Source of the DNA: a virus
Taxonomy: Duplodnaviria > Heunggongvirae > Uroviricota > Caudoviricetes
Length of the DNA: 64,000 nucleotides
Strand: one strand, 5' to 3'
Virus record (IMG/VR): IMGVR_UViG_650377940_000003
Coordinates: 23,323 to 87,322 of that record
Positions within the stretch are counted from its first letter, which is position 1. Each line of letters opens with the position of its first letter. A program made the translations under genes and the position numbers. The notes under the pieces are model-generated. The model searched no databases and was not told the DNA's origin. It worked only from the letters and a program-made list of their open reading frames with translations. Positions 1 to 37,905 of the stretch are shown here, one piece after another.

Positions 1-3000
1 AACTACGGCTTTGTATCATAGAAGCAGAGCTATTCTTTGCCAGCTGGTCACTGAACCACTTATCAGGATTTCCACCCATCTCAAATAGGCGAGATGTAAT
101 ATCAGCAGGAATTACGCCATCACCAGTTTCAAGATAAGTGTAACGACCAGAAGCAGGCTGGCGTACCAACATTTCAGGACCAACTTCATCAACGTTATAA
201 GTGCCGTCGTGTTTGATTTTCTTATCGCCAGATGCCTTCTTGCCCCAATTCCAGAACCAGAATTTAGAACCCCAGAATTTATCCCATGCGGATTGTTTCT
301 TTTCCTCTGGCTTATTCTCTTCGGCTATAGTACCCTGTGTGGCATTTACTGTAAGATTCGTAATGCCAGTGGCTTTCTTTGTGTTTTCGGCGGTTTCAGA
401 ACTACTATTCGCAGTGTCTTTTGTATTTTCAGCGGTTTCTTTACTCTTGCCGAAAATGTCTTTACATAGATTTACGATTCCACCAATCGGACTGATGTCC
501 CAGAAGAACGATGCAACAGACTTTATTGCTTTTTTGCCAAAACCGTCTTCTTTGTTAGACCAGATTTCTTTTTGATGCTTTATACCCTTTACACCGCTAT
601 AAATACCAAGACCAGCCGCTGCAGCAAGACCACCAACAACAGGGATTGCAGAAGCGCCAGCAGCACCTATAGCACTAACAGCACCTTTGATAAGTCCGCC
701 AGCACCAGTGACTAGTTTTCCTGCGCCTTTAATAAGAGTGGAACCAATCTTGCTCTTACTAACAGCATTACCGACAGCTTTGAATCCATCCACAACCGTG
801 GAAACAATACCGCCGCCTTCGCCAGAACCGTTAAATAGGCTCTGAGCACCAGCTTTGATTTTCTTCCAGATGCCACTAAATGTTTCAACAAGTCCGTTTC
901 CTGAAGTCTGAACTTTACTCCTTAAAACGTTGAAGAAATTCTCGACTACATTAGCGGACTCGCCAGTCGCTTCTTCGCCACCCTTATTGAAGAATCCTTT
1001 TATCGTATTCCACAGACCTTTTGTACCGAGGTCTTTGTACTCGCCAGTCTTAATTGCAGAATACAGATTATTTACCTTCGTGAGCGTATTGATCAGTGAT
1101 TCAAGGTTTGTGATCAAATTCTGGATGCCGGTGATCGCGCTGCCAGTATTCAAGCTTGCAATAATCTTATTGTGATAGCCGTCCAGTGAGCCCTCCATCT
1201 GAGATAAACTCATCTTTTGAATCTGCGCAGTGTACTCAAGCTCCTTCTGGTAATCCTTCCAGCTCTTGCCGATATCATCCATGACCTCAGACAACTTGTC
1301 CTTGAACTCATTGTACTTTTTGATCTGGTCGTCAATAGCCTTTTCAGCATCCTTGTTATTCCACTCGCGCTGCTTATCCGCAAGGTCTTCACGTGCAGTA
1401 CGCACATCTTCGGCGTTTGCCTGCCACTCGTAGCCATTCTCAGTGTACACACGGGTCGTGCGCTGTTGCTGGGCGCGGGCGAGAGCATCTTGTGCCTTGG
1501 AAAGTTCAATAGCACGTTCGGTAGCTTCGTTGTTTTCTTCCAGAGCTTCCTTCTGCTTATTCAGGGCTTCAATCCGCTTGTCGATGACTTTGCCCATAGC
1601 ATCGCCCCAAATTTTGAGGTCGTTGTTGGATTTATCATTTAAGCCGGAGAGGAGAGAAAGGAAAGAAGACAGAACGTCTTTTGCATCGGATAGAGCGGAC
1701 TTGAATTCCTCGATTACCTTTTCGACACCATCCCAGTGCTTTTTCAGTTTTGTTGTAACCTGTGCGTCGGTCTCTTGAACTTCGAGAAGAGCCTTTTCCA
1801 AAGCGTCATCAAGTTCCTTCTGAACTTCGGCTTTTTGCTTGAGAGCTTCGTCTTCTGATAGATCCTTGTTAGAATCAATGGCAGACATTTTCTTTGTATA
1901 TTGTGCTAAGACTTTCTGATACGTTGCAGTCTTCTTTGCAAGCTCCACATACTCATCATGGGTTGGCTCACGCACATCATCAATCATTGCCTGAACTTGA
2001 ATACCAATCGGACTACCTTCAAACTCTTTTGCAAATGCACTCAGTTTATCAACGTAGCTTTGGCGAAGCGCCTTTACGTCAATTTTAGCGTTACCATCCT
2101 CATCGTAAGTAAGTAGATTAGAAAACTCTTCAGGAAGTTCCTGCAGCTTCTGCATGGTATCCTGTGTCAGCTGGCCGGTAGTATTCCACTCGTCCATCGC
2201 ATCTTTTAGCGTGCTCCAATTAGTCTGGTATTTGTCCAACTCGGTATTTACACGCTCAAGGTCAGTTCCAAGACCAACAAGATAATCACTAACAGAAATT
2301 TTGCCACTTTCAATATTTGCCTTATCAGAACTTAACGAGTTTGCAAGCGCAGTAGCCGCAGCACCACCGGTTTCGTTTGCAGCTTTTATGCGCTTATCCA
2401 ATTCATCAAGAGTCGCTTTCTTAAACGCCTCAGTGTTGAGATTGATGTTCCCGTTTTTGTCAACGAGATTATCCATCAAATCCTTGTTATCACCAAAGAA
2501 CTTGCTCAGTTGCAAGATAGACTCTATCTTACTTTCTGTTGCATCAAGGTCACCAACACCGAATTGACTATTCTTGATTTTCTGCTGAATATCATATAGC
2601 CCAGAAAATGCGGATTTTATAGCGTCCGTCTTTTCCTTGGCTTCATCCATCGCGGTGCCGTAGCCCTTGATGGCATCAGTAAGTTGCTCAAAAGAAATGG
2701 TTTCGGAATCGACACTAGAGTTCAACCAGTCGAGAATCTTCTTCATCTCGCCAGCAGACTTGCCACCATCATTAGCTGCATTCGCTTCCTCAAGCTGCGC
2801 TCTGACAAAAGTGCGGAATTTTGCGGTGTTAAGCTCAAGTTTTCCATTTTGCTCAGTTAAGCAAGCAGTAAACTTATCATCAACACCGATTAACGACTTC
2901 ATGGTGTCTGCACTAATATAGCCATACTGGTTATATTCTTTCATCGCTTTTGTTAACGTATCAAAAGCAGATGACAGGTCAGCAACAGATTTAGAAGTTG

Positions 3001-4936
3001 TACTAGATGATTTTCCAGCATTTTTAGAAGATGAGCCGAATCCATTCAACTGATTTGTTAATGCTTGCCCACCCTTTAAAGCGGCATTCATATTGGTGTA
3101 CAGCAAAGAAAGCTGAGTATTTGTGCGATTCGTGATTTCCTCTAGTTTTGCAGGATCTACGCCGCGTTCGCCGGCCTTCTCTACTTCATTTGCAAACTCC
3201 TGAGCCGCACTGTATGTCGCAGTAGCCGCAGTAGCATTTTTCAAGGCAGGAAGAAGATTTTCCAGAGCAGTCTTTTCAGCCTCTGTTTTTTCTTTTAAAT
3301 CATCAGTGCTTTCAGCCGTATCATCGGCAGTAAGGTTTGCGACCTCATGTTGTGCGTTAGACAGAATTGTTGCCGCAGCTTCTGCGTATTCAGCAGCAAG
3401 TAACTCGGCATAACTCTGTTTATTTATCTGAAGCCTACCATTAACAAGCTCAAGGCAATTCAGATACTCGGTGTTCATCGTCAGTAAAGACTGAAGAGAA
3501 TCGAGACTCATGTAGCCATACTGATTGTACTCTTCCATTGCACTGGTAGAAGCTTTATACGCAGACTGGATTTCATCCATTTTGGAAGAAATATCCTCCA
3601 TCTTCTGTGCGCCAGCAGCCAATGCGTCAACACCATTTGCAGAAGACTGAGCTACAATACCAACTTGAACAAGTGCTTGGATAAACGCATTTACACCGTT
3701 TGTGTCAGCAGAGAAGTCCATGTCGGTCAAAGCTTTACGAAGATTTGTGAGAGCTTGCGCTTGCTCGTCTGATAATCCTTCGTTTGTGCCCCATAAGAGC
3801 TCGTTTAACTTACTTGCATCAAACCCATCAATGGTATTTTTTAGAGTTTCGATTGCAGAATTGACCTTATCGAAACTATAGCTTACGTCCATACCATTGC
3901 TTTTGCCGTCGCTCCAAAAGTCAATAGCTTGAAGCTTTCTACGAGCGTTTACATTCTCGTTAACAGCATCCGTTGAGTCGTTGTAAGAATCTACATCATC
4001 ACGGAGAGCAGATTGCTCATCCATTAAATACTTATAAACGGTATTGTACGCACCGCCTGCCGCTCTCTGTGCTTCTGTTGTGTTTTGTACAATATAATCC
4101 AGTGCTCGTCCAAGTTCAGAATAATACTTTGCGATAGAATCTGGATCATTCAAGTCCTTCGCACCAAAACTACCATTCTTATTAAAAACATCAATACCAG
4201 CATCTTTTAACTCGTTCATAATACCACGATTGGTATTGGCGGAAACAGAACTAAAGAAATGTGAACGATTGTTGTCTTTTGCGGTTTTAACTAGCTTATT
4301 GCTTTGAGCATCCTTGGATTGAATCAACTTCGATTCGGAAGCTTTGAGCTGTTCTTCTGTGATATCCTTCAGCAAACCAAGCTGTTCTTCATATTTTCCA
4401 TTTTGAAGATCAAGCTGATTTGCTTTATTTTCGTCAAGAGTGCCTTGTTCTTTTGCAAGAGCCAAAAGTTCCTCTTGGATATCCGTTGCTTGGTCAAAAT
4501 CTTCTGTACTCCAACCAGACTTGTCGCCAAGTTCTTCGTAGGCATCAACTAGATCCTTTAAAGAGGAAGTGGCATTTTTAGCTGCGTCAGCTTCCTCTTT
4601 AGTCTTTGTAGCCGCAGTATCGATTCGCTGTGCGTAATCAGCTATGGCGGAAACGACTCCGTTTATTGCCATTCCAATTAACGCACCAACAGCCATCGAC
4701 AAAGCGAGATTTAGTGCTTTTGCCGCGAATGTTGCTGCCCTCATCGAGAGAGTCAAACCGTCAGTTGAGGCTTTACTTCTTATTGAATATTTGATAAAAT
4801 CAAAGAAAGAAGTCCCAGCTCCACGCTCTGCTACATCTAGCGATAAAAATTCCCTGTAAAGATTTCGTATTTTTGTTATTAGGCCAGTAATATGATTATT
4901 GTCATCAACGTCAAAAACGTTCATGAAAGATAATAT
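1..4936 (-). CDS. Tail tape measure protein, exon 2 (runs off the window start; spliced protein >2680 aa)
   Basis: Missing from the ORF track because no stop lies in the window. Manual translation of sampled stretches is open: ILSFMNVFDVDDNN... at the start, repeats like AMKEYNQYGYISAD / AMEEYNQYGYMSLD, and the C-terminal motif YNVDEVGPEMLVRQPASGRYTYLETGDGVIPADIT. Confidence 0.85.
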   Translation of the reverse strand, partial: MLSFMNVFDVDDNNHITGLITKIRNLYREFLSLDVAERGAGTSFFDFIKYSIRSKASTDGLTLSMRAATFAAKALNLALSMAVGALIGMAINGVVSAIADYAQRIDTAATKTKEEADAAKNATSSLKDLVDAYEELGDKSGWSTEDFDQATDIQEELLALAKEQGTLDENKANQLDLQNGKYEEQLGLLKDITEEQLKASESKLIQSKDAQSNKLVKTAKDNNRSHFFSSVSANTNRGIMNELKDAGIDVFNKNGSFGAKDLNDPDSIAKYYSELGRALDYIVQNTTEAQRAAGGAYNTVYKYLMDEQSALRDDVDSYNDSTDAVNENVNARRKLQAIDFWSDGKSNGMDVSYSFDKVNSAIETLKNTIDGFDASKLNELLWGTNEGLSDEQAQALTNLRKALTDMDFSADTNGVNAFIQALVQVGIVAQSSANGVDALAAGAQKMEDISSKMDEIQSAYKASTSAMEEYNQYGYMSLDSLQSLLTMNTEYLNCLELVNGRLQINKQSYAELLAAEYAEAAATILSNAQHEVANLTADDTAESTDDLKEKTEAEKTALENLLPALKNATAATATYSAAQEFANEVEKAGERGVDPAKLEEITNRTNTQLSLLYTNMNAALKGGQALTNQLNGFGSSSKNAGKSSSTTSKSVADLSSAFDTLTKAMKEYNQYGYISADTMKSLIGVDDKFTACLTEQNGKLELNTAKFRTFVRAQLEEANAANDGGKSAGEMKKILDWLNSSVDSETISFEQLTDAIKGYGTAMDEAKEKTDAIKSAFSGLYDIQQKIKNSQFGVGDLDATESKIESILQLSKFFGDNKDLMDNLVDKNGNINLNTEAFKKATLDELDKRIKAANETGGAAATALANSLSSDKANIESGKISVSDYLVGLGTDLERVNTELDKYQTNWSTLKDAMDEWNTTGQLTQDTMQKLQELPEEFSNLLTYDEDGNAKIDVKALRQSYVDKLSAFAKEFEGSPIGIQVQAMIDDVREPTHDEYVELAKKTATYQKVLAQYTKKMSAIDSNKDLSEDEALKQKAEVQKELDDALEKALLEVQETDAQVTTKLKKHWDGVEKVIEEFKSALSDAKDVLSSFLSLLSGLNDKSNNDLKIWGDAMGKVIDKRIEALNKQKEALEENNEATERAIELSKAQDALARAQQQRTTRVYTENGYEWQANAEDVRTAREDLADKQREWNNKDAEKAIDDQIKKYNEFKDKLSEVMDDIGKSWKDYQKELEYTAQIQKMSLSQMEGSLDGYHNKIIASLNTGSAITGIQNLITNLESLINTLTKVNNLYSAIKTGEYKDLGTKGLWNTIKGFFNKGGEEATGESANVVENFFNVLRSKVQTSGNGLVETFSGIWKKIKAGAQSLFNGSGEGGGIVSTVVDGFKAVGNAVSKSKIGSTLIKGAGKLVTGAGGLIKGAVSAIGAAGASAIPVVGGLAAAAGLGIYSGVKGIKHQKEIWSNKEDGFGKKAIKSVASFFWDISPIGGIVNLCKDIFGKSKETAENTKDTANSSSETAENTKKATGITNLTVNATQGTIAEENKPEEKKQSAWDKFWGSKFWFWNWGKKASGDKKIKHDGTYNVDEVGPEMLVRQPASGRYTYLETGDGVIPADITSRLFEMGGNPDKWFSDQLAKNSSASMIQSRS

Positions 4937-4956
4937 CATTTTTGAGGAGAATAAAT

Positions 4957-5370
4957 ATGGATAAATATGTACGCTACTGCCCGTTATGTGACAAGTATTA
5001 TCCCCAAAATCAAATGCTGTGCGCATTTTGCTTTAGAGATGTCATATTATCGCCTAAGTGGAATAGTATGAGCCAGCAAAAGAAAATCAATTGGAAGTTT
5101 GAGCATCTGCCGCAGGTTGACATTTCAACACTTAGCGAAGATTCGCTCAAAAAAATGCAAGATAAAGCCAACGCCTTTGATGCTCAATATAGAGCCGAAT
5201 TAGAGGAGAAAGAACATCCGAAATACGTTCCTACCTGCCCAACCTGTCATTCGCCTGATATTGAAAAGATTAGCGGGACCAGTAAGGTTGTTGATGCAGT
5301 AGTCTGGGGCATTTGGTCCAAAAAGGCAGGGAAGACATTTAAATGCCGGAATTGCGGTTACGAATGGTAA
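4957..5370 (+). CDS. Zinc-ribbon (CxxC) hypothetical protein, antisense cargo inside TMP intron
   Basis: ATG at 4957 after GAGGAG; CPLC..CAFC at the N-terminus and CPTC..CRNC at the C-terminus. Confidence 0.75.
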   Translation: MDKYVRYCPLCDKYYPQNQMLCAFCFRDVILSPKWNSMSQQKKINWKFEHLPQVDISTLSEDSLKKMQDKANAFDAQYRAELEEKEHPKYVPTCPTCHSPDIEKISGTSKVVDAVVWGIWSKKAGKTFKCRNCGYEW

Positions 5371-5391
5371 GGTGTATCTAACTAAAATGAC

Positions 5392-5424
5392 ATAAATAAA
5401 GCCCCTGCTAAAATCTAGCAAGGG
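5392..5424. terminator. Terminator-like hairpin between convergent cargo genes
   Basis: CCCCTGCTA-aaatc-TAGCAAGGG, followed by a U-rich tail on the minus strand. Confidence 0.6.
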
Positions 5425-5443
5425 TGTGTTTACTATATTCAAT

Positions 5444-6061
5444 TTACCGCAAACACCATCTAGCAAGATGAGAATTCTTGTTATCGTACAGAAATTCAAA
5501 ACGCTTAACGTGGCACATCGGAACACACATTACTGTGCTTATAGGATGCCTTGATGCTTCGTCCATATCTTTTCCATCTGGCGTAGTTGCAGAAGAATGA
5601 TGGCTTAAAGTGATGTATTCATCATCAACGGTGTCAATACGTCCAAGAATATATGTTCCATCATCCAAATAAAGAAGAACATTAGTTTGCCCTTCTGCAT
5701 CAATATGTCTTGTCCAAATATTATCGGCAGTATCTACACCAAAATGTTTTGACGCCTTCCAGCGAACCCATACACAATTCTTTAATTTAAAATATACAAT
5801 TGCTGACAGGATACCAACAACAGAGTAGACCACAACAATAGGAAAACCATTGAGTCCAATGTGTGCTTTCGATAAAAACGTGTCGATATAGTCAACGATA
5901 TATTTTATTACAAAACCGATTGATACGCTAAGTGCTAAGAAACTTTGCGTTTCGATTTTCTTTAATGCCAATTTAGTGTATAGCGAAACACATAACACGC
6001 CAGGCACAAAGACACTAAAAAGCATAGTAACATTATTTATTAGTTTTATCAGTTCTGTCAT
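5444..6061 (-). CDS. Membrane protein (DUF6338-like), intron cargo
   Basis: ATG at 6061 after GGAGG; three hydrophobic segments then a soluble beta-rich domain (LLYLDDGTYILGRIDTVDDEYITL). Family assignment is from memory. Confidence 0.6.
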   Translation of the reverse strand: MTELIKLINNVTMLFSVFVPGVLCVSLYTKLALKKIETQSFLALSVSIGFVIKYIVDYIDTFLSKAHIGLNGFPIVVVYSVVGILSAIVYFKLKNCVWVRWKASKHFGVDTADNIWTRHIDAEGQTNVLLYLDDGTYILGRIDTVDDEYITLSHHSSATTPDGKDMDEASRHPISTVMCVPMCHVKRFEFLYDNKNSHLARWCLR

Positions 6062-6230
6062 TTGCACCTCCAGTAGTTTTATTGTTATTCCGTGTTGCAC
6101 TTCTGTCTCTAAAATAAGAAATTAAAACTGATGTGTCTGCTTTTGGCTGATTCGGAGAATAGGTGAAATTACCGTCTCTTTGATAAGTTGAAATTTCATA
6201 ATCCGGCACATGCTTCTTATTGTTTTCCAT
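6033..6230 (-). CDS. Small hypothetical protein overlapping the membrane gene, intron cargo
   Basis: AAGGAG RBS; upstream TTGCTT-N17-TACACT promoter-like sequence. Confidence 0.55.
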   Translation of the reverse strand: MENNKKHVPDYEISTYQRDGNFTYSPNQPKADTSVLISYFRDRSATRNNNKTTGGANDRTDKTNK

Positions 6231-6289
6231 GATTCAACACTCCTTTTATAAGAGTGTATCACAGGATGTCGTAAAAAGCAACGCAAATT

Positions 6290-6333
6290 AAAAACGCCCG
6301 GCCTCCCAGCAGTAGGGAAGTCGGGCTTGTTTT
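6290..6333. terminator. Bidirectional intrinsic terminator
   Basis: GCCCGGCCTCCC-agcagta-GGGAAGTCGGGC, flanked by AAAAA and TTGTTTT. Confidence 0.75.
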
Positions 6334-6344
6334 ATGATGATGCC

Positions 6345-6677
6345 TTACTTCAGTTTTTCCAGAATCTCGTCTGCGCTCACACCGCTAGACAGCAACTTCT
6401 TGAGCACATCTTCGGCTTCGGCCTTCTTTGCAGCTTCCGCAACCTTTGCGTCGGCATCAGCCTTTTTCTTTTCGAGCTTGGTGATCTCTTTGTTGAGTTT
6501 TTTCAATTCTGCTTCTTTTGCTTTACGCTGGGCGTTCAGTGTAGCGATATCATCACTAATAGTTGCAATCTCCTGAGCAATAGATTCTGCGGCAGTATTC
6601 TTTTCAGCGATCTGTGCCGCGTAATCAACGCCGTCGAGAACCTTTGCTTTATTCTTGCTTCCTTTAGGACGTGCCAT
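6345..6677 (-). CDS. Small coiled-coil protein with AT-hook-like N-terminus, intron cargo
   Basis: MARPKGSKNK start then K/A/E-rich heptads; GGAGG RBS; own promoter TTGCTT(6749-6744)-N17-TATAAT(6726-6721). Confidence 0.75.
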   Translation of the reverse strand: MARPKGSKNKAKVLDGVDYAAQIAEKNTAAESIAQEIATISDDIATLNAQRKAKEAELKKLNKEITKLEKKKADADAKVAEAAKKAEAEDVLKKLLSSGVSADEILEKLK

Positions 6678-6786
6678 AATAAAATACCTCCGTATATTTT
6701 GAATACGCGATTGTACTTATATTATAGCCAGAAAATTTCAGAAAAGCAACCTCTTTTTATGTATTATAAATTACATTATAGAAATA

Positions 6787-6816
6787 TTGACATGATATGA
6801 CAGACGGGTGTATAAT
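6787..6816 (+). promoter_or_regulatory. SigA-type promoter of the putative toxin mRNA
   Basis: TTGACA-N18-TATAAT with TG just upstream of the -10. Confidence 0.75.
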
Positions 6817-6963
6817 AATGGAGCAATCAGGAGTTCCACATCGAACTTGTCCAACCATAGATGTAAAAAATAGGCGGTCACCCTCCCAGTAGCCGGAAGG
6901 CAAGAAGGAGCGTGTATTTCTTTAACTGCCTTCCGGCAATATTGTCGGAAGGAGGATGTTGCC

Positions 6964-7089
6964 ATGAATTTTGACATTCAGACTGTCTACTATGTCGCAA
7001 TGCTGTTCTTCGGTTTTGCTGGCTTTGTTAAGACTGTTCTTGAGATTTTCAAGATGCTACATCATCACAGCGAGAGCCGTGATAAGTAA
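6964..7089 (+). CDS. Putative type I toxin-antitoxin membrane toxin (41 aa)
   Basis: MNFDIQTVYYVAMLFFGFAGFVKTVLEIFKMLHHHSESRDK: one TM helix plus a charged tail; GGAGG RBS; ~140-nt structured 5' UTR. Not in the ORF track. Confidence 0.7.
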   Translation: MNFDIQTVYYVAMLFFGFAGFVKTVLEIFKMLHHHSESRDK

Positions 7090-7200
7090 AAGAGCCGCCT
7101 ATGTCCAGTAGGCAGCTCTTCATTGGGATTGAAATTGTCCAGATTTTAATTCCATTTGTTTGATGCTAACCGAGGGAACCGTCTATTGGAACTCTTGGTT
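7088..7200 (-). ncRNA. Putative antisense antitoxin sRNA (~115 nt)
   Basis: Consensus promoter TTGACA(7235-7230)-N17-TATAAT(7212-7207); ends at hairpin AAGAGCTGCCTA..TAGGCGGCTCTT-UUUU (7120-7088); convergent with the toxin gene. Confidence 0.7.
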
Positions 7201-7733
7201 GCTTTTATTATACACTTTTTAGAGTACGCTGTCAACGAACAACAGTGTACTTTTTCTTTTTATTCAATTATTCAATCATTTTTCTCTTTCTTATATCGCG
7301 CCAGAGAATAGCGCGTCTCCTCATTTCCACCTACTTCTTTAAGTCGTCTGGTTACGTCTGAGGTGGACTTCTGAACTTTCGTCCAGAACTGACTATCCTT
7401 CCAGTGGTTGCTCACTGACCCTTTTTAGTCGATGAACCTTCCACCCTCCTACATTATATAATAGGGGAGTGAATCGGCTGCTGACCGCCCATTATAAACG
7501 CTACTTAGCACTCGATTATTACCATATTTTGACAATACGATAAAACCGAGCTTTTATCTCAGCATATAGCATCCATATCCTTGTTTCTATCTTTCGATTC
7601 CTACATTATATAAATATAACAATAGGCGATATGGCTCTTAGGGTTTCCCAGCACTCTAGGGGCTATTTTATTTTTACATGGTGCCGCATCCTATATTTTA
7701 TACGCAACAAATATAAGAGGGCATATTAACTTT

Positions 7734-10700
7734 ACCCGCACCATTTTTGAGTTTTCCGCTCATCTGCATTACAGACAACACACCAGAGATGGCAGCTGTC
7801 AAAGTGGGTAATGCACCAGCAAATTTTACAGCGTTATCTGCACCGTCAACAAAAACCGTTGCAAGATCTACGAAAAACTTCGGAATATCTGACTTCATCA
7901 AGTCCGTACTGAACTTCTGGAATGCAGAATCAAGCTGATTAAGCTTCGCCTGCAATGAATCCATGTACGTCTGGTTCTCACGCATTGCGCTTCCGCTAGA
8001 ATTAAGAGCCTGTTTCATAGCATCTTCTGCAACGCTAAAATTATTCAGCAGGGCAGATGTACTCTGACCTCCACGCTTACCGGCGATCAATTCTGTAATA
8101 TTTGCCTGAGTGGTATCAGAAAGGTCTTTCCAAACCTCAGAAAGCTCCTTCATAATCTGATAGGTTGATTTGAAGGTATTATCATCCTTCATGATATCAA
8201 CCCCAGCAAGTTGCTTCAACTCAGAGCGAAGCTCAGATACGGAACTCGCCATTCCATCCGTAGCAATACCGGCATTTTCTGCATCAGTCTTTGAAGCACG
8301 AAGGTACATACTCAAAGTTTTTAGGTAAGTGCCACTCGCTTCGCTGTCCTGAAGTACGCCATTTACAGCGGCTGCAAGGCTAAGAGTCTCTTGATATGTA
8401 TTTCCGGCGGCAGACATCGCAGCAGAACTTTTCTGCATGATAATTCCGAGATCATTCATACTGACAGGCTCTGTATTCGCGATTTGGTTCATGCAGTCCA
8501 GAAGATGTTCTGCGTCGTCTGCAACCAGACCAAAGCCTTGCATTGTAGAAATCAGGTAAGAGGAGGCAGTTGTTGCGTTATCAATCTGATCTCCAACGTT
8601 AGCCATAAGCGCAGACACACGAGCAAGCTCTTCAGAGTCTTTGTCCGTATATCCGAGTCGTTTCCAGTCAGCAGTACTACTTACAAGGTCAGAAATATTC
8701 GCACCAAGCTCACGAGCATTTGTTGCAGTTCTGTCAAGATATTCATTCATCTCGTCGCCAGTCATTTTACTGACCTTTTTGAGTTCAGTTACAGCCGTAT
8801 CAAGCTCAAGAACGTTATCATAAACCTCTCGCAGACCTTGTTTGACCATTGCAACGCCAGCCATAGCGATAGCAGTCTGAAAGTGCTCTTTGAATAGACG
8901 AGACAGTTTTTGACCAAGAGTTTCAGTTTCAAGGCCAGCTTGGTGGCAAGCATTTTGGAATTTGCTGACTTTCATTTGAGCTTCTTCAAAAGAATAACTA
9001 CCATTTTTAATCGCATCAAAAAGCTCATTATATTCTGCTTCAAACTTTGAACCTTCAAATCCATGAAGTGTTTCTTTATACTGATACAGAGTACGCATAA
9101 GATTTTCTATCTTATCTGTATCAGTATTTGCTGTCTTTGTCTGACGGCTTTGCCCCAAAGCATCGTCAATATGTTTTCTCACCTGAACAAGTAAATCGTC
9201 AACTTGACTAAGTGTTGCTTTAAACTCTGTTGGACCTTTATTTTCATCCAACTGTTTCATAGCAGCATCTAGCTCTGCCAATACTTGTTGCCCAGTTTTG
9301 CCATCATCCAACACGCCTGTGTTAAATTGCCCTAAAGCAACACTATTTTTTCTTGTGAATTCCGTACTACTTAATCTATTTTGAATAGTGTTATAGGCAG
9401 CTTGCTTTGAACGGACTTGACCGTGCTTCTGTTCGGCTTCTTTCTGCAAATCCTCTTCTGATTTCAAAGCTTGCTCAATTTGAATTTTTACCTTTAGCCA
9501 CTCGTCAACAATATCACTTACTCGTTGTTTGTACGTAGCAGATTGAGTATTCATTCCCTTTAAAGAATTAAGTTGGCTTTCAAGACTACCATCAAGAGAA
9601 TTCGTCTTACTATCGCCAATAAGAACACTGTCAAAACTGTGGTTTCCGGCCTGCTCTAATTCTAATTCTTTTTTACGGATTTCAGTTAATGTTCTTCTCG
9701 CAGTGGATTCAAGGTCTTTGTATCCATCCGTGTAAACAGACATGGACGCTTTTGCACTAATAAAAGCATCATCTAAGTCTTTTACGCCTTTCTTGTATGC
9801 ATCTGAACTATGGTCTGAATCCAACTTTTTAGACGCATCAATAATACCGTCAATGGAATCTCTCAATTCTTGCGAAGCAGTGTCGCTGTCCTTAATGGAT
9901 TCCTTCCATTTCAGCGCCTGTTCCGTCATGCTCTTGACATGATTTTCAGCTTTCTTCTGAGCTTCATCAAAAGTACTCATCTGGCGAGTGGCGTCAGCCC
10001 ATGTATCAGCGACAACCTTTAATTGATTAACATAATCTTGCGTTCCGGTTTCAAGCGTGTTAAGAATATCAATCTGCTTTTGAACATCCGCAAGAGAAGA
10101 TTTTACATCAGAAGCTCCAGAAAAATTCTTATATTTATTATTGGCGTCAGCAAGATTATTTAAGTACGTATTAGTTTGATCGCTTTGTGATTTTTTTAAA
10201 GCCTTTAACGCTCCATCATTCGCGGCATTCTTTAACCCTTGAAGCCGAGCCTCAAGCCTAGAAATACTATTAGTTGTTGCTCGTTCAATTTCGGAAATTT
10301 TGCTAAACTCTTCCGTCGGAAGAATGTTTACAAGTTCTGTACGCAGCCGACCAGCTTCATTTCTAACAGCTTGAAGTTGACGTAAAACCTCTTCTAACTC
10401 TGGCTGATTCTTACCAGACGATTCAAGTTTGAGAGCATCCTTATAAAGAGAACCTTTTTCTTGAACCCTTCGGTAAAAAGCATCTAGTTTTTGTTTCGCT
10501 TCATTAGTGTTTAAGTTTACTTTGACTTCGGCTTTCGCATTTTTCGCGCCAGACTGTGCTTTATCAACAGCCTTTTTTACAGCAGCATCAATATTAGATT
10601 CATCTATTTTCAAAGTGAGTTTTGGAGACTCTACCTTTTTAATGATTCGCTTCAATGCGGCATTAACATTGCCGATGGTTGCGCCTTCGTTTACACCAAA

Positions 10701-10853
10701 AGCAATCTCCACAGGAGCCTTTTTAAAACTGTTTTGAACTCCTTTAAATTGATTTTTTAACTCCTCGGTAGTAGTATCAAGAACGACCTTGACCTTTATG
10801 GCCGTTACAGAGGAAGTATCAGCACTACTTGCGTTGTTTGTATTATCCGCCAT
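7734..10853 (-). CDS. Tail tape measure protein, exon 1 (~1040 aa)
   Basis: ORF 7698..10865; likely ATG at 10853 after GAGGTG. Long helical protein with a TP901-type TMP core (ELDTAVTELKKVS...SADWKRLGY...ITELIAGKRG). Coding ends ...KNGAG at a GGU| group I 5' splice site. Confidence 0.88.
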
Positions 10854-10983
10854 ACCGTTGGTCACCTCTCTTTTCCATTTTCAACATTCCTTTCAAAACA
10901 AAAAAGAGAAGCGGCCAGCTCCTTAAAGCCAGCCCTCCTCTCATTGAATTTTATTCCAAATAAATCCTCATAAAAGATGGCTT

Positions 10984-18507: not shown

Positions 18508-20094
18508 CCAAAATTTTTAAGAAAAATGTTTATCTAAAATATTTTCCACATTATCAAAATCCGTGTAGGGAATTCTGATAAGTTTTATTCCGTTATTTTT
18601 ACAATAACTTGTTTTCAAAGAATCTTTCTTTTGCTGATTTTTATATGTAGCAATAGAATCAGACTCGGTTATACTTTTACAAAACCTAACTGGTATAAAA
18701 TGTTGCTGTCCATCATATTCAATGCAAGTATTTTGCGACGGAATATAAAAATCAAAAGGAAGCTGTCTCTCGTTTTTGCAATCTTTAAAGCGATATTCGC
18801 GAATATATGCAATTCCTTTTTTGTCAAGATATTCACATATCTTTTCTTCACCATGTGAGGACCAACACTTAGGACACCCGTGCCCACCGAGTATTGAGTT
18901 GACTGCGGTGTTCCATTCGTAACCGCACTTCTTGCAACGAAAGTTGGCGTGAGATAAAATAGTTTTATACCCGTTCAAATACTCTACACTTGGAGAAGAT
19001 TCCTTTATTCGTTCAATTATTTCAGACTCCATAATATGTGCTTTACCTGCACATTTTGGACAGCCGGAATTTTTATTATTAAGTATCGTATCAGGAATTG
19101 CGGTCCAATGGTAACCGCAAACATCACATGCAAAATCCACTTTCACAGCAACACGGACATATTTTGAAAGAACATGAATAGTAGGAAATCGTTCACGCAT
19201 TTCTTTTAAGAATTCATCTTCCGTTCGTCTGTTTGCAATCCGTCGATAACATTCTGGACACCCATGTCCATCAAGCAATGTATGAGGTATGCCATTCCAC
19301 TCATGCCCATCAAGTTTACAACGACAATGCACTCTCGAATTGTTTGTTGTGTATTCAGATAACAACTCAATATTAGGATTTACTTCAAACAGCTCCGTGG
19401 AAAATTGTATTGGCGACTTTCTTTTTTCTGCTCCACGCTTAGAGGCAACACATGCTTGACACCCACGATTATCAAGCAACATTCTTGCCTGTACTTCACG
19501 TACATCACCGCATACTTTACATTTCCTGGTAATCTTTTTTCGAAGACCATTATATTCGGATAAAATTTCAAAATTTGGGTTTACATCAAACACTTCTTTT
19601 TTGAAGTCTTCTGTCGTTCTCATTGGTGTCATCCATGCTACCTCCTTTCTTGCAAAATAAAAGCCAGACATTCTACACAACATCTGGTCAAATTAAATAT
19701 TAGATAAACATTATATCGGACGCTACTCCGTTCTTGTTGCATCTAGCAACCTCGTACTCTCATACGAGTGAAGACTATATCTTCACCCAGTAAAAACACT
19801 GGGGCACACTACTTTGGATGCCAAACACTTGCATCCTAACCGCTCCCACGCGGATAGTCGTTGAACCTTTTCCTTTTCGGAACTTGGCTGCTGATTGCCC
19901 ATTATTTCAGCGTTTAGGATTTAACCTTGCGCCATCTACAATTTTCTTTCTACTTTCGTAACCGTCCATCTAGGCATATTTCATCCTTCTGCTTTGGTAA
20001 TTGTAGTTTTAGGGTTTTCCAGCAATTCAATGTGTATTTGTTATCGTGACTTACATCACGACTGGACTATATTACGTAAATTTACATAAATTTA
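18508..20094 (-). ncRNA. Group I intron in major capsid gene (1587 nt) with endonuclease ORF
   Basis: P AAUUGCUGGAAAACCC (~20012-20027), Q AAUCAGCAGCC (~19886-19896), R UUCAACGACUA (~19856-19866), S AAGAUAUAGUC (19773-19783). U before the 5' site; terminal G at 18508; in-frame join GAT|AAA. Confidence 0.92.
18517..19632 (-). CDS. Intron-encoded homing endonuclease (Zn-ribbon repeats plus EDxHD/vsr-like PD-(D/E)XK domain)
   Basis: Repeated CxxC...GCPxC units; C-terminal FDFYIPSQNTCIEYDGQQH; likely ATG at 19632 after AGGAGG. Confidence 0.85.
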   Translation of the reverse strand: MTPMRTTEDFKKEVFDVNPNFEILSEYNGLRKKITRKCKVCGDVREVQARMLLDNRGCQACVASKRGAEKRKSPIQFSTELFEVNPNIELLSEYTTNNSRVHCRCKLDGHEWNGIPHTLLDGHGCPECYRRIANRRTEDEFLKEMRERFPTIHVLSKYVRVAVKVDFACDVCGYHWTAIPDTILNNKNSGCPKCAGKAHIMESEIIERIKESSPSVEYLNGYKTILSHANFRCKKCGYEWNTAVNSILGGHGCPKCWSSHGEEKICEYLDKKGIAYIREYRFKDCKNERQLPFDFYIPSQNTCIEYDGQQHFIPVRFCKSITESDSIATYKNQQKKDSLKTSYCKNNGIKLIRIPYTDFDNVENILDKHFS

Positions 20095-20916
20095 ATCCGG
20101 GATCAGCAGAGAACCATCACCCAGCTTCTTGGCAGAGCTAATACCAGTGATAGCAACACCATCGTAAGTCTTAACCAGACCATAACGGTTAAACTCATCC
20201 TTAGCTGCGTCAGACAGATACTCAGCGTAACCGGTCATACGACGCATCTTAGCACAATACTTCATCAGGCTGACAGTGAAGGGATTACCACCATCTGCGT
20301 ACTCATTCAGATATAGAGCCAGAGCGTCCATATCCTGCATAGTGGGCTCCTTACCCTGTACATCAATCTTCTGCTCACCACCAGTGATAGCGTCATCAAC
20401 CATACTGAAGATGTCATAGAACATCTGGTTCTTCAGAGCCTCAGTCATAAAGGTGGTCAGAGTTGCCACACTCTTCCAAGCATTACGTCTTACTTCCACA
20501 TAGCTAAGATCAGCCTCGATCTGCTTATTACGCCAGACGGGCTTAATGGTCTCGTAGTGCAGGTAAGACTTCGGCACGTTGCCGCCCTTAGCTGCATCAT
20601 AAGCTTTCAGAGTGTTCTTAACAGTACGACCTGCCTCGTAGTCATCAAACTCACCAACATTACCACGTTCAAACATGGAGTCCAGCAGCTCATCAGGTGC
20701 ACCATACAGCTCATCAGTCACAGTGCGGTTAACAAACTGAGCAATCTCCTTGTTGGGGTCGCCCTTATCAATCAGCTCCTCAACATGAGCGCCAACAACC
20801 TCAGCAATTTCCTTGTCCTCGGCATCCATAGCGCGATTGTACTGAGTCTTCTCAGCAACTTCATAAACACGACCAGGCTGCTTCATCAGCTCGGCCACTT
20901 CAATATCCAGTGCCAT
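20095..20916 (-). CDS. Major capsid protein, exon 1
   Basis: 274 codons ending ...GDGSLLIPD at GAU|; follows the scaffold and decoration genes; HK97-like size once spliced (331 aa). Confidence 0.85.
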
Positions 20917-23099: not shown

Positions 23100-24725
23100 T
23101 CACTTACTATCTTCATTTCTCTGCTGGTCATAAATTTGTTTTTCAGTTTCCTCGCCCTTTGGACGGCCTGTTTTTTTATCACTGTCACCACCGCCGGAAC
23201 TACCGGTCGATGTATAAGAGGTCTGGCGAGCCACAAACACATCGTCATAACCTTCTTCGGTTTCGGCCTGACGCTTGCGTAGTTCGTCCTCGGCATGAAG
23301 TCCCATATACTCGTAAGCAGTCTTGTAAGAACAGTTCAAAGTGGTAAACAGGAACTGAGCAATCGCCTTCTTCATCTCCATACCCATCATTTCAGTAGTA
23401 GAGACCTTCACATCAGGGCAGTACATTGGGTCTACACCTGCGTCTTCAAGGCGAATACGATACCAGCGTTTTAATACATCTTCAATCTGCTCTGCAATCT
23501 TACCAATATTTTTCATCAACTGGTCAAGAGACACTTTTGCAGTTGAAACAGTCTGCTGACCATCAGTATTCAAGAAACTAATACCCAAAGCAGCCATCTC
23601 TCTGTTGCGATACTGCTTGACAGTCTCGATATTTGTCATCTCGACCTTCGGCTCAACATACTTAATATCCTTGACATAGGGAGCGGTCGTTACAAGTACG
23701 GTATTTTGCTTCCATGCACGCAACAGGTTGTCATGTGCTGTCACCTGTTCAGAGAAACCCTTCTTGTCGTTGTTTGGTCCCATCAACGCAGGATCAAGTT
23801 GCTGCCAGATTATTTTCTTAGCCTTTGCCTTAGCGTTCACACGGTCTGAAGTATCAAAGGTCTCAAGCATCAATGCCGGACGTAAGGCGCGGAACAGGGG
23901 AGAAACACCATATTTTTGCCCCATATTGCCAATACGAATTACGCCACAATGGTCAACATCCAATTTTGCATATGTATCACCATTCTTAAACGCCTGATAC
24001 ACCTCGTCTGGATAGTTGCTCTGAATCTCGGTCTCCTGATTTTCAAAGAATAGTGCTTTATTCTTCTTATCCTTCAGCATAGATTTGCTCAAAGCGGATT
24101 TCAGCTTAGACATATTAATAAGCACAACAGGCTGTCCATTTGATAAGTAATCACTTATCTCAGCAATACCAAGAGGGTAGTAGTCTACAATGTAGTTCTC
24201 ATCCTTCTGACGCAGATATGTAATGTAAGTGCCCTCTGCATAAGTCATCGGAATGGCGGCACGAAGCAGACTTCGCACATTGATTTGTGTATTGAAGTCA
24301 TCAATCACTTCACGGGCATAATTTACCTGTTTTGTCTTATTACGCTGCTCGGGGAACTGCGCGAAACTGCATTTGAACTCCGTATTAACATTCGCCTCAA
24401 TCGCATCATAAGTAATGCCAATCAGGTCATCCTTATTGATGTAATTACGGATGATGCCATTGACCGTCTGCACATTCGTCAGGCTTGACTGTAACCCTCG
24501 TGCAAGTTCATCAATTCTGTCAACCGTCAGCGTTTCAGAGGAGGCTGAAATTTTCAGGTATGTACTATATTGCTTATTTTCAGGATCATAGGATGCGATA
24601 GCATGGCGGATAACATTGTCCATTCTTTCTTCTGAAAGCTCGTTTACAGATGTAAGCACAACAGTACCATCATCTGTCTGTGAAGCAGTCACGACATCAA
24701 AATCTTCCTTTTTCTTTCTTGCCAC
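23100..24725 (-). CDS. Portal protein
   Basis: 541 aa directly after the terminase; KYGVSPLFRAL; C-terminal GRPK motif. Confidence 0.75.
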   Translation of the reverse strand: MARKKKEDFDVVTASQTDDGTVVLTSVNELSEERMDNVIRHAIASYDPENKQYSTYLKISASSETLTVDRIDELARGLQSSLTNVQTVNGIIRNYINKDDLIGITYDAIEANVNTEFKCSFAQFPEQRNKTKQVNYAREVIDDFNTQINVRSLLRAAIPMTYAEGTYITYLRQKDENYIVDYYPLGIAEISDYLSNGQPVVLINMSKLKSALSKSMLKDKKNKALFFENQETEIQSNYPDEVYQAFKNGDTYAKLDVDHCGVIRIGNMGQKYGVSPLFRALRPALMLETFDTSDRVNAKAKAKKIIWQQLDPALMGPNNDKKGFSEQVTAHDNLLRAWKQNTVLVTTAPYVKDIKYVEPKVEMTNIETVKQYRNREMAALGISFLNTDGQQTVSTAKVSLDQLMKNIGKIAEQIEDVLKRWYRIRLEDAGVDPMYCPDVKVSTTEMMGMEMKKAIAQFLFTTLNCSYKTAYEYMGLHAEDELRKRQAETEEGYDDVFVARQTSYTSTGSSGGGDSDKKTGRPKGEETEKQIYDQQRNEDSK

Positions 24726-27580: not shown

Positions 27581-27975
27581 CTGAATGTATTTAATGCACA
27601 TCGCAACTGTACATTGCCGTATAAACGACCACACAATTTCTTGTCGTGAATAGACTATTTCATCATCCAAATATAATTTGGAGCTTGATTTTTCCTCCGC
27701 CATAAGCTTGCGGTTTTACTCTCCCACAAGGAGATAGTCGTTGAACCTCACCCTGTCATATAGACGTTACGGGCAGTGGCTGCATGAACATGGATTGTTG
27801 CGAGCTTTAGCACGTCATAAGACGATTTTATTTCAGCATAACTCATCTCTACGTTTTTTCTGCTTTCGCACATTTACGTTTACCGTTTCCGGTTCCGCTT
27901 TAGTGTAGAGCTTTACCAATTACCTGCAATTAACCAAGAAGCACACACACATCTCTGTATATGTGAGGCAACTTA
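27581..27975 (-). ncRNA. Group I intron 1 of terminase (395 nt, ORF-less; junction non-canonical)
   Basis: P-like AAUUGCAGGUAA, Q UUCAUGCAGCC, R UUCAACGACUA (~27735-27745), S GAUGAAAUAGUC (~27653-27664), P7 GACUA/UAGUC. Confidence 0.8.
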
Positions 27976-35144: not shown

Positions 35145-37905
35145 CCTCCTTGCTATTCATGTCAACCAACACATCCTTGAAACGCTTGCCGTCATATTCA
35201 ATATCGCCATTCTCATCCTGCACAAGAGAATGCACCATACCATTATGGCGTTCCAATAAGCGTTTAATCAAAGTATCATGAAACAACTCCCAGACGATTG
35301 CAATACTGGATGCATTCTTTTTACAAAGATCAAGCAGAATGTCGCAAAGCACATCGTCATTAGAACACTTGTCATGAAGATTGCGGAACATACTTTCCTG
35401 ATACAGCGCAATGCGCTCCTTGCGATCTGCGCCGGTTTCTTTATTATTGTTTCCGTTGCCAGAATGGATTGCGTTACCACGAGCAAACCTCAAGTAGTCC
35501 TTAAAGATAGAGCGGATGCCATAATACTGAGAGTTGGTATACTCAACACCAGACTTGAGCGAGTCGTAATCAAACTTGCGCTTTATCTTGAGTTCTTCTT
35601 CAAAATCTTCCAGCTCGTCCTCAACAGTCCAGCATAGGCGGTTCATGGTACAAGAATTGATTCCGACCGGCATCCGATAGAGGTAATACTGGATAACCAT
35701 TTCATCCACATCGTCCTTGACGGTCTTTTGCATAATCTCATCCAGACCGGCAAATCCATCCCACTTAATACGCTTGCGAGCTGCGGCCACATACTGCTTG
35801 TAATCACGCATCTGAGCAGGGTAGATGTAGCTCATAAAGTATGGCTTACGCCATGCGCAAATACTACTCCAGAACTTCTTATCCTCGATAGTATCAGGAT
35901 TATCATCGTCTTTAACGGCGCAAGCTTTATTGTCATACCAGTATTGCGGCATATCTGTCGTAGCTACGCCTTTTATTTTGTCGATCGCGTTTTGTTGATA
36001 AAGCTGTCCGCAGATAATGCGATATGTAAGTTCATCGTACTCTTTACTACCTTGCTCAAATTTACTTCGCACATCAAACATCGTTGTAATTCGGTTTGTT
36101 GTACGTCCAATATTATCTCCAAATCCGCTGATATTAGATTCAATAAAATCCTTTTCGGTCGGAACTTTTTTCTCGCATTTGCGCTGAACACAAAGAACGA
36201 CCGGCTCATTTACCCATTTATCAATGAGAACTCTATTGTCGGTAGAAAATGTAAGGTCGGCATCGAAATCTTCACCGTTAAGTGCTGCACACATATTATC
36301 CCACGCATTGGTGATAAACACGGACTTCATATAGCGATACCAGTATTGGCAATCATCAGATACATTCAAATTCATGCACCGAATATTTGCCATCTGACTC
36401 ATAGGAGCTCTAAAACAAGCAACCCTCTTGACGTCTCTATCATTCCAAAAACGACTGTAAACCTCACCAGCCTTCAATAGTCCGGTTACCTCCATCCGAA
36501 ACATAGACTGGCAAAGCGCATATGGATCGCCACTCGCAACTTGAAAATTCCCTCGTACCTTTACAACACCCGTTTTTGCCTGAGAGATTCGCTTTTTAAT
36601 AAAGTATCGAATCCGATTCTGCACATAAGGGTCGTTAATCATTTCCGGCTCAATCATAAGAGCCTTAATATAGTCGTTTTCCAGACTGTTTATGTAATTC
36701 GGGTCATCACGCATTCCACTACCACGCAAATACAGCAACGCATCACGCCAATCACCGCCCATGACGCCCTTGATTTCGTCCAAAGTCGGCTTTACAAGCT
36801 CACGAATCTCATCATTCGTAAGCTGATAGCTTTGGATAAACTGATAATTCAGATTACGCTCCTCATCAAGCTCCAACTCACAAGTCTTGGTTACAGAGAA
36901 GTGATAGTGGTTCTCTCTACAGTTTTCAAGATAGTCCTCACAACTATGGTAACTATCCCACAGCTTCAACATAGAGGTACTAAGAACTACTTGAATCCTA
37001 TTTATATCACGATAATCTCCCCATGCGTCTTTTAGCATATTCTGTTTCGCAACCTTCTTGGCAAACTCACGGAAAGGGAAAGGGAACAACATACCTTTAC
37101 AAAAAGCATTCCGTACACAGAAGCCAGATGCGGTAGCAGGGAGTTTCAAATCTTCACTCCACTGTTGTGCAAGATCATAACTAATAAGTCCAAACCCATC
37201 ATTCGCACACAGCTCACAATCGTGTTCCTTATCTTCAACTATCGTAGGTTCTCCAGACACTCCATCGTCCAGAACAACAATATGGTCTTTAAAGCGCGTG
37301 TAGCAATCATCTATAACAAGTACACCATCAGGGTCAGTGACCGGAATAGAAGCAGAGCAAGCAAGGGCTCTATAAGCCTCTAACTTTGCAGGCACAAATT
37401 CCATACCCTTGTTACGGCCATTATCAATTCGCTTGCGGATCTCGTCAACAAGACGGTCGCTCACAAATACAATCGTACTATTCTTAACGCCACCAGTTGT
37501 TCCAACCAAACGGCGATACGTGATTCCATTGATTTTAAACCCCTTGGGAGAACACGCCCGGCGGTAGTCGTTCTTCTTGTCAACCACCAGACACATATAA
37601 TCCGGCTTAAACTGAACTGCATCCAGCTCAGTGTATAATCTCCGAATTTCCCGGCGGTTCTCTAAGCAAGAAGGTTCATTCCGTAGCATTTTGATTCTAC
37701 GCTTGATACTCCGTGCCTTAGCCTCTGCGTCCGTAACACCATTCAACTCATCAATCCATCGTAGAACAGTGCTATCAGCCAGCGAGATGATCTCGTGGTT
37801 TCGTCTGGCTTCATCTAATGGTAGGGTTAAATCCCATTTTGCTTCAACCAGACGCTTCGTATGGATCTTAAAAACAAACTTCTGGCAAGTTTGCTGTTTT
37901 GCCAT
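35122..37905 (-). CDS. YonO-like single-subunit (RdRP-family double-psi-barrel) phage RNA polymerase
   Basis: 927 aa; NDGFG, VRNAFCKG, FRAP and LNGEDFDAD motifs typical of the cellular RdRP/YonO family; SPbeta-like context. Confidence 0.85.
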   Translation of the reverse strand: MAKQQTCQKFVFKIHTKRLVEAKWDLTLPLDEARRNHEIISLADSTVLRWIDELNGVTDAEAKARSIKRRIKMLRNEPSCLENRREIRRLYTELDAVQFKPDYMCLVVDKKNDYRRACSPKGFKINGITYRRLVGTTGGVKNSTIVFVSDRLVDEIRKRIDNGRNKGMEFVPAKLEAYRALACSASIPVTDPDGVLVIDDCYTRFKDHIVVLDDGVSGEPTIVEDKEHDCELCANDGFGLISYDLAQQWSEDLKLPATASGFCVRNAFCKGMLFPFPFREFAKKVAKQNMLKDAWGDYRDINRIQVVLSTSMLKLWDSYHSCEDYLENCRENHYHFSVTKTCELELDEERNLNYQFIQSYQLTNDEIRELVKPTLDEIKGVMGGDWRDALLYLRGSGMRDDPNYINSLENDYIKALMIEPEMINDPYVQNRIRYFIKKRISQAKTGVVKVRGNFQVASGDPYALCQSMFRMEVTGLLKAGEVYSRFWNDRDVKRVACFRAPMSQMANIRCMNLNVSDDCQYWYRYMKSVFITNAWDNMCAALNGEDFDADLTFSTDNRVLIDKWVNEPVVLCVQRKCEKKVPTEKDFIESNISGFGDNIGRTTNRITTMFDVRSKFEQGSKEYDELTYRIICGQLYQQNAIDKIKGVATTDMPQYWYDNKACAVKDDDNPDTIEDKKFWSSICAWRKPYFMSYIYPAQMRDYKQYVAAARKRIKWDGFAGLDEIMQKTVKDDVDEMVIQYYLYRMPVGINSCTMNRLCWTVEDELEDFEEELKIKRKFDYDSLKSGVEYTNSQYYGIRSIFKDYLRFARGNAIHSGNGNNNKETGADRKERIALYQESMFRNLHDKCSNDDVLCDILLDLCKKNASSIAIVWELFHDTLIKRLLERHNGMVHSLVQDENGDIEYDGKRFKDVLVDMNSKEDADDCIE

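Follow-up and report, generated by a model that had tools for sequence, protein, structure and literature searches.

A candidate cargo-bearing group I intron interrupts the tape measure gene of an SPbeta-like prophage

Tape measure gene locus

We analysed a 64,000-nt stretch of DNA (the window; positions 23,323 to 87,322 of IMGVR_UViG_650377940_000003), part of a 151-kb IMG/VR provirus record, in which the tape measure gene of an SPbeta-like prophage is interrupted at 4937-7733, probably by a group I intron that carries accessory genes. Window coordinates are used throughout, and features lie on the minus strand unless stated otherwise. The list of open reading frames (ORFs) and their translations place exon 1 at 7734-10865, with 1,044 codons counted from a GTG at 10865; an alternative ATG is found at 10853. 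Exon 1 ends in ...KLKNGAG, with GGU at 7736-7734, and the ORF to which it belongs (7698-10865) reaches its stop 11 codons beyond this GGU. Residues 716-927 of this ORF match PhageMin_Tail (Pfam, E 1.2e-22). The ORF at 2-5026 encodes further coiled-coil, glycine-rich sequence typical of tape measure proteins. Within it, exon 2 (2-4936) begins with AUAUUA (4936-4931), reads ILSFMN... and runs off the window.

A first-pass annotation of this DNA, made from the letters alone, had described a tape measure gene that stops at 7698 and resumes in frame at 4936, which is what the ORF list and translations gave. Joining 7734 to 4936 produces the in-frame sequence ...KLKNGAG|ILSFMNVF..., so that the spliced product KNGAG|ILSFMN proposed there was also read correctly. 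The spliced gene would encode ...KNGAG joined to ILSFMN... in a single tape measure protein with a length of 2,689 residues or more, and the tryptic peptide spanning the predicted junction is NGAGILSFMNVFDVDDNNHITGLITK. The stretch to be removed measures 2,797 nt, of which nt 1-455 hold the ribozyme core and nt 456-2797 the cargo.

Two scans of IMG/VR yielded 155 related loci; 135 had both exon ends and 95 were distinct across the gap. All 95 are interrupted at the same tape measure codon, by introns of 1,870-6,167 nt, and this recurrence places the arrangement far beyond chance. The comparison with related loci that had been proposed with the first-pass annotation revealed the same arrangement in 95/95, with cargo that differs between relatives.

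Group I ribozyme

In a search of 3.3 kb with the Rfam group I model RF00028, the full model (1-253) aligned to 7370-7743 with 26.9 bits and an E value of 4.3e-4. A complete group I core had been claimed at 7391-7660, and the covariance model thus recovers it, albeit below threshold. The claimed P7, formed by GACUA (7430-7426) and UAGUC (7395-7391), is present in this alignment. P1 with its internal guide spans 7719-7737 in the same alignment: exon GGGU (7737-7734) pairs with GCCC (7722-7719), which puts the pair U7734.G7722 at the 5' splice site. This GGGU/GCCC helix with its U.G pair is invariant in the relatives and agrees with a 5' site after GGU (7734), as first proposed. The conserved shell of about 455 nt (7280-7733) consists of the P1-P9 core, a P9.1 hairpin, the motif GAGGAGA (7322-7316) and a P9.2 hairpin (7315-7297).

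The core was aligned in 74 distinct sequences. Pairs were counted on a hand-derived structure based on the Rfam alignment, because the RNAalifold consensus, which cannot draw the pseudoknot, mispaired P3 and P5. Helices P1 to P9.2 are 93-100% canonical, with 98% for P1 and 99-100% for P3, P4, P5, P6, P7, P8 and P9. Compensatory double changes occur in P2, P5b, P5c, P6a, P8 and P9.2, while P3, P4 and P7 give no covariation signal because they are invariant in these sequences. Nine relatives have an insertion of about 400 nt located exactly in the terminal loop of P6a, with the core intact after it; this loop is a place where a folded ribozyme can tolerate an insertion.

A further complementarity was observed next to P1. 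Exon bases -10 to -4, AUGGUGC (7743-7737), are complementary to intron nt 52-58, GCACCAU (7682-7676), and the pairing is 98.8% canonical in the 74 sequences. Either it adds to the structure beside P1, or it represents an alternative pairing by which the end of the exon is masked.

Predicted splice sites

In every relative the 5' junction reads GGT|AAAGTTAATATGCCC, including those with no more than 57% protein identity at the end of exon 1, and the guide UAAUAU is invariant as well. In the window this guide (7728-7723) is the exact complement of the first six bases of exon 2, AUAUUA (4936-4931), with which it would form P10. The intron 3' end (4937-4951) comprises UCUCCUC (4950-4944), AAAAAU and the final G at 4937. 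Both elements named in the first-pass annotation, a guide pairing immediately 5' of the U.G pair and a terminal G, were therefore confirmed and found to be conserved.

Statistics on the 3' splice site were collected from 58 distinct 3' contexts. The terminal intron G is present in every one of them. The first codon of exon 2 is ATA in 46, GTA in 8 and ATG in 4, and never ATT or ATC, although ATA makes up only 12% of the isoleucine codons of exon 2. At the second codon, 54 contexts have TTA and 4 have TTT. The variants GUAUUA and AUGUUA keep P10 through G.U pairs, and a mismatch is found at the terminal position only (AUAUUU, 4 contexts). Because the observed changes alter the residue yet keep the pairing, and no synonymous change that would disrupt it is seen, the constraint appears to act on RNA pairing rather than on the protein.

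Conservation varies along the locus. Median nucleotide identity to the window is 68% in exon 1 from -300 to -60 and 95% in its last 60 nt, 96% in the first 255 nt of the intron and 70% in its last 60 nt, and 92% in the first 12 nt of exon 2 and 62% in the next 48 nt. The core, the guide, the final G and the P10 partner are, as judged from these comparisons, conserved islands amid diverged exons. Exon 2, in turn, does not appear able to start on its own: an in-frame start codon accompanied by a Shine-Dalgarno sequence occurs in 0/58 contexts over the stretch from the upstream stop to codon 30, and many contexts lack any start codon there.

Taken together, these comparisons speak for a working group I intron whose 3' splice site is distant from the core. 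The ribozyme would choose the 5' site through P1 (GGGU/GCCC with its U.G pair); the final G and the 6-bp P10 helix UAAUAU/AUAUUA would specify the 3' site at a distance of 2.3 kb. A helix between GAGGAGA and UCUCCUC may close the cargo into a loop. This duplex is possible in 52/52 distinct combinations, with 7-8 bp and -10 to -14.9 kcal/mol, compared with -7.9 kcal/mol for shuffles. The 5' and 3' modules of the intron recombine freely among relatives.

A second, proximal 3' splice site was considered and rejected as a site of regular use. The sequence GCGCG|AUAUAA directly after P9.2 (7297-7291, minus strand) matches P10 at 5/6 positions and is not conserved in relatives; splicing at G|AUAUAA would give GGU|AUA UAA and truncate the tape measure protein at 1,045 aa. 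It may be the remnant of an older, more compact 3' splice site.

Intron-less homologues and distant lineages

Every close relative sampled has the intron, so the comparison with empty sites rests on homologues of 26-49% identity. More distant homologues were found by scanning a set with one genome for each prokaryote species. In six of these (L164, L165, L166 and L169-171) the tape measure gene is uninterrupted at the predicted site, and it is likewise continuous in Enterocloster phage PMBT24 and Brevibacillus phage Sundance. In blastp, the spliced window protein aligns with that of L165 as one segment of 541 aa (36.6% identity, E 1.5e-86) and with that of L169 as one 595-residue segment that crosses the junction, in both cases with no gap there. 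At the level of predicted proteins, exon ligation would restore a frame that is collinear with uninterrupted homologues.

Two further collections were searched. With the beginning of exon 2 as query against 5.8 billion proteins, the matches listed were all near-identical products of exon 2, and consequently no close intron-less relative emerged. In a phage collection, a DNA search gave three short matches only, and tblastn with the exon 2 start gave none.

Distant lineages with an interruption at the same place were also detected. In an Oscillospiraceae metagenome bin (L167, 49% identical) a group I match begins at the same site (9628-9941, 48.9 bits, E 1.3e-9); exon 1 looks fragmented there, so this gene may hold more than one intron. 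Another metagenome bin (L168) has the same junction. In the lineage of L001 and L163, which shares about 60% identity in exon 1, the reading frame ends at the same codon after ACGGGU (L163, 9838 to about 13640; L001, 5069 onward). A similar P1 (GGGU...GCCC) follows, but the guide differs and reads GAUUGU. In L163 an in-frame G|ACAAU lies about 3.8 kb downstream, before the resumed frame, and an antisense gene again begins just upstream. Rfam finds no group I core in this lineage, and the apparent P10 covariation (GAUUGU with G|ACAAU) is for that reason only a lead.

Assessment of splicing

From the anatomy of the core and splice sites, their conservation and the continuous homologues, we conclude with a probability of about 0.8 that 4937-7733 (minus strand) functions as a group I intron with cargo, interrupting the tape measure gene of this SPbeta-like prophage. 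Exon ligation by guanosine-dependent catalysis is what we infer from these features.

Several points weigh against this conclusion. The 26.9 bits of the core lie below the RF00028 gathering score of 50, and the intron is accordingly absent from a whole-window Rfam scan at that threshold; the large P5 and P6a extensions account for the lower score, and the core of one relative (L140) scores 21.7 bits. No close relative without the intron was found among the 95 distinct IMG/VR loci, which leaves the empty-site comparison to the more divergent homologues described above. The closing helix does not covary when the bases flanking GAGGAG and CUCCUC are compared in relatives, and its pairing is unproven because its 3' strand doubles as the ribosome-binding site of an antisense gene. 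Three sense-strand hairpins followed by U tracts lie within the intron, at -19.9 (z -4.9), -21.1 and -14.1 kcal/mol, and host RNA polymerase is therefore expected to stop before exon 2. A convergent antisense gene also overlaps the last 430 nt of the intron.

A polymerase encoded by the phage itself may explain how exon 2 is reached. A YonO-like RNA polymerase is found at 36076-37551 (minus strand; 927-aa open frame, 28% identity to SPbeta YonO, E 1.6e-24), on the same strand as the virion genes. YonO transcribes the late genes of SPbeta as a single operon and does not have the flap domain involved in hairpin termination (PMC5467207). We infer that the YonO-like polymerase of this phage would read through the internal terminators.

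The same terminators could be explained by splicing in trans, in which one transcript would end at an internal terminator and a second would bring the 3' splice site and exon 2, the two associating for example through GAGGAGA/UCUCCUC and P10. The presence of three sense-strand terminators between the core and the 3' splice site fits this explanation, as does the long-range duplex of 7-8 bp that is possible in all relatives. However, a promoter scan showed no promoter-like site on the sense strand between the last terminator (5402) and 4937, this region is antisense to a gene that looks expressed, and the terminators could be passed more simply by means of a YonO-like polymerase. We therefore regard splicing in trans as improbable.

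An equally improbable explanation is that the intron is a dead relic, so that an N-terminal half ending 11 codons into it and an internally started C-terminal half are made separately, the gap being an intergenic island of accessory genes. In all close relatives among the matches listed, gene callers do predict a separate protein of about 1,680-1,790 aa from exon 2, and the internal terminators and the Rfam score below the gathering score are compatible with a relic. However, the absence of an exon 2 start codon with a ribosome site from all 58 contexts argues against separate translation, and a relic would not be expected to keep the guide, the final G and the P10 codons under constraint at the nucleotide level. 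The core, moreover, is 96% identical and shows compensatory changes while the exons diverge to 62-68%, and the homologues are single ORFs across the site.

The only RNA runs with this sequence, two labelled as metatranscriptomes of a synthetic metagenome, contained contigs identical to the window, covering only 4958-5370 and 7704 to about 10845 and leaving exon 2 uncovered. Because they stop at the bounds of annotated genes they are uninformative on splicing, and we read them as data built from, or filtered to, annotated genes.

A split polymerase gene was noticed in another SPbeta-like phage. In Bacillus phage vB_BsuS-Goe11 (L161, 16369-20166), yonO is annotated as yonO_1 and yonO_2 with a hypothetical gene between them, which suggests an intervening element in the polymerase gene.

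Accessory genes in the intron

The cargo ranges from 1.4 to 5.7 kb among relatives and has genes on both strands. Five accessory ORFs and a small RNA had been described in the window, several with promoters of their own; all were found again, and two promoters have a 12/12 consensus match. Counted from the ribozyme, the first is the small RNA unit at 7090-7235 (minus strand), which comprises a 12/12 promoter placed at 7235-7207 by the promoter scan, a predicted transcript of about 117 nt and a terminator hairpin of -19.9 kcal/mol near 7121-7089. It is convergent with a toxin-like unit on the plus strand (6787-7089), which has a 12/12 promoter at 6787-6816 and a hydrophobic 41-aa ORF at 6964-7089, and the two share the terminator hairpin. 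The 41-aa peptide has no family match, and the pair has the layout of a type I toxin-antitoxin system, which makes it a putative one. In the DNA contigs of another organism, the whole small RNA and peptide module (6734-7279) is replaced by 27 nt.

The remaining genes are a coiled-coil gene at 6345-6677 (minus strand; 110 aa, MARPKGSKNK...), with a terminator hairpin of -21.1 kcal/mol near 6326-6296; a small ORF at 6033-6230 (minus strand; 65 aa); a membrane protein gene at 5444-6061 (minus strand; 205 aa), downstream of which a bidirectional terminator hairpin of -14.1 kcal/mol lies at 5402-5424; and an antisense gene for a double zinc-ribbon protein at 4957-5370 (plus strand; 137 aa), the ribosome site of which (GAGGAG, 4944-4949) is 8 nt from the splice site. 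Two of these are resident. The zinc-ribbon gene is present in 95/95 relatives, always antisense at the intron 3' end, and the coiled-coil gene is present in 94/95, at 46-100% identity, and also in the distant L001. The other modules are less frequent, the membrane protein being found in 59/95, the 41-aa peptide in 33/95 and the 65-aa ORF in 32/95.

Functional assignment of these proteins was limited. No function could be assigned to the zinc-ribbon, coiled-coil and membrane proteins with PHROGs, Pfam, ESM Atlas or Foldseek; the membrane protein has only a weak Pfam match, to DUF6338 (E 0.0017). An AlphaFold2 model of the zinc-ribbon protein (predicted local distance difference test score, pLDDT, 78) consists of two zinc ribbons joined by helices, and it has no match in the PDB below E 0.1 and none that is nuclease-like. 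Cargo of other relatives includes SocA/Panacea, PemK/MazF, DUF3800 and aspartyl protease genes, and four relatives have weak matches to candidate defence families.

No homing endonuclease was detected in this cargo. The first-pass annotation had stated that the 3' part of about 2.35 kb holds no endonuclease, and searches with Pfam, PHROGs and protein folds revealed no homing endonuclease family in the intron ORFs of the window. The families LAGLIDADG, GIY-YIG, HNH, His-Cys box and PD-(D/E)XK were likewise absent from the 57 representatives of the cargo clusters of the 95 relatives. Pfam scans of the cargo in the window and the relatives detected no transposase families.

The stretch from the ribozyme to the 3' splice site would act, by the proposed mechanism, as a slot for accessory genes, two of them resident and the others exchangeable. 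Cassettes with their own promoters and terminators would be expressible from the prophage without the tail gene. The earlier idea that the intron is a hotspot for morons is supported by the variation of the cargo between relatives and by its own promoters and terminators. On this evidence the cargo matches the description of an accessory-gene hotspot, comprising cassettes with predicted promoters and terminators and a content that differs between relatives.

The near-universal presence of the two resident genes could also mean that the intron depends on them. The zinc-ribbon or the coiled-coil protein would then act like a maturase or as an RNA bridge, bringing the core and the distant 3' site together. 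Their occurrence in 95/95 and 94/95 introns while all other cargo varies, their lack of a known family and the distance of 2-6 kb between the core and the 3' splice site would fit such a role. However, neither is similar to a known maturase; the zinc-ribbon gene runs antisense right next to the splice site, a position that alone may explain its retention; and IStrons splice with 3' cargo and no such factor (PMC4227781). Protein-assisted splicing is thus an unlikely explanation, to about the same degree as splicing in trans or a relic.

A broader proposal, which we put forward tentatively and think somewhat less probable than even odds, is that the intron is an integron-like cassette platform. 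Its recombination anchors, between which related prophages would swap accessory or defence cassettes, would be the highly conserved ribozyme at one end and, at the other, the zinc-ribbon gene together with the beginning of exon 2; splicing would make any load harmless to the tail gene. The terminators would separate expression by host polymerase during lysogeny from read-through by the YonO-like polymerase during lytic growth, and the resident proteins could be intron-specific factors.

The P6a-loop insertion (L087 and 8 other loci, intron nt 261-664) was observed to contain an antisense ribosome site and a small ORF that looks hydrophobic on visual inspection; in the ORF listing, this frame extends into a longer ORF. 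It may represent a second toxin-like gene, nested in the core.

Relation to known introns and accessory-gene hotspots

Group I introns have been reported in the tape measure genes of Bacillus cereus-group prophages, where they are named TMP-IVS1, IVS2 and IVS3 (Tourasse and Kolsto 2008, PMC2504315). As far as the available part of that report describes them, they resemble the present intron in their location in a Firmicute prophage tape measure gene, in splice sites set by P1 and P10 and in the lack of a complete homing endonuclease gene from some copies (PMC2504315). In the same part of that report they are described by ribozyme structure and endonuclease completeness, with no mention of a multi-gene cargo (PMC2504315). 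In contrast, the intron studied here contains 1.4-5.7 kb of variable genes on both strands with their own promoters, and it is fixed in every close relative sampled. The first-pass annotation knew of no such case in phage tape measure genes. Since these Bacillus cereus-group cases have been published (PMC2504315), novelty of tape measure introns as such cannot be claimed. A full-text literature search found no description of a phage intron with a variable set of independently transcribed accessory genes.

The overall architecture resembles that of IStrons, namely CdISt1 of Clostridioides difficile and BcISt1 of B. cereus (PMC4227781). Both have a 5' ribozyme, a long 3' coding cargo and Firmicute hosts, and both are removed as one unit, which puts the 3' splice site far from the core, as would be the case here (PMC4227781). 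The cargo of IStrons consists of IS200/IS605-type transposase genes, and the element moves to many genes (PMC4227781), whereas the present intron has no transposase detectable with Pfam, is located at one tape measure codon in 95/95 copies and changes its accessory cargo. Group I introns can hold other genes in organelles, where they reach up to about 20 kb (PMC4227781). Like such giant organellar introns, of which the hexacoral ND5 intron had been cited in the first-pass annotation, the present intron encloses genes unrelated to intron mobility. The organellar introns, however, are mitochondrial, fixed and filled with core organelle genes, while this one is found in a prophage and its cargo differs between close relatives.

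Precedents also exist in phages. In the nrdD (sunY) intron of phage T4 the core precedes the ORF and the 3' splice site is located hundreds of nucleotides downstream of the core, as it is here, but that intron of about 1 kb has a single endonuclease ORF on the sense strand, without multi-gene cargo, an antisense gene or internal terminators. Phage morons and prophage defence hotspots have, like the present cargo, cassettes with a promoter and a terminator, toxin-antitoxin-type content and variability between similar phages. To our knowledge, however, the accessory hotspots of phages are intergenic, whereas this one would be located inside an essential virion gene and be harmless only by virtue of RNA splicing.

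If the proposed splicing takes place, a self-splicing intron in an essential virion gene would provide a stable slot for exchangeable accessory genes, and thereby a new location for phage morons, toxin-antitoxin modules or defence-type cassettes. The clade is common, with at least 95 distinct variants in IMG/VR, many of them from gut samples. Annotation of such phages calls for caution, since gene calls divide the tape measure gene into two proteins in the close relatives among the matches listed. The clade is also a natural setting in which to test how a group I ribozyme can locate its 3' splice site over a distance of 2-6 kb, past terminators and against transcription in antisense, and it ties this question to single-subunit polymerases of the YonO type.

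Other genes of the same prophage gave further group I matches, one at 19751-20095 (minus strand; 79.8 bits), which is above the cut-off, and one at about 27630-27952 (minus strand; 25.3 bits).

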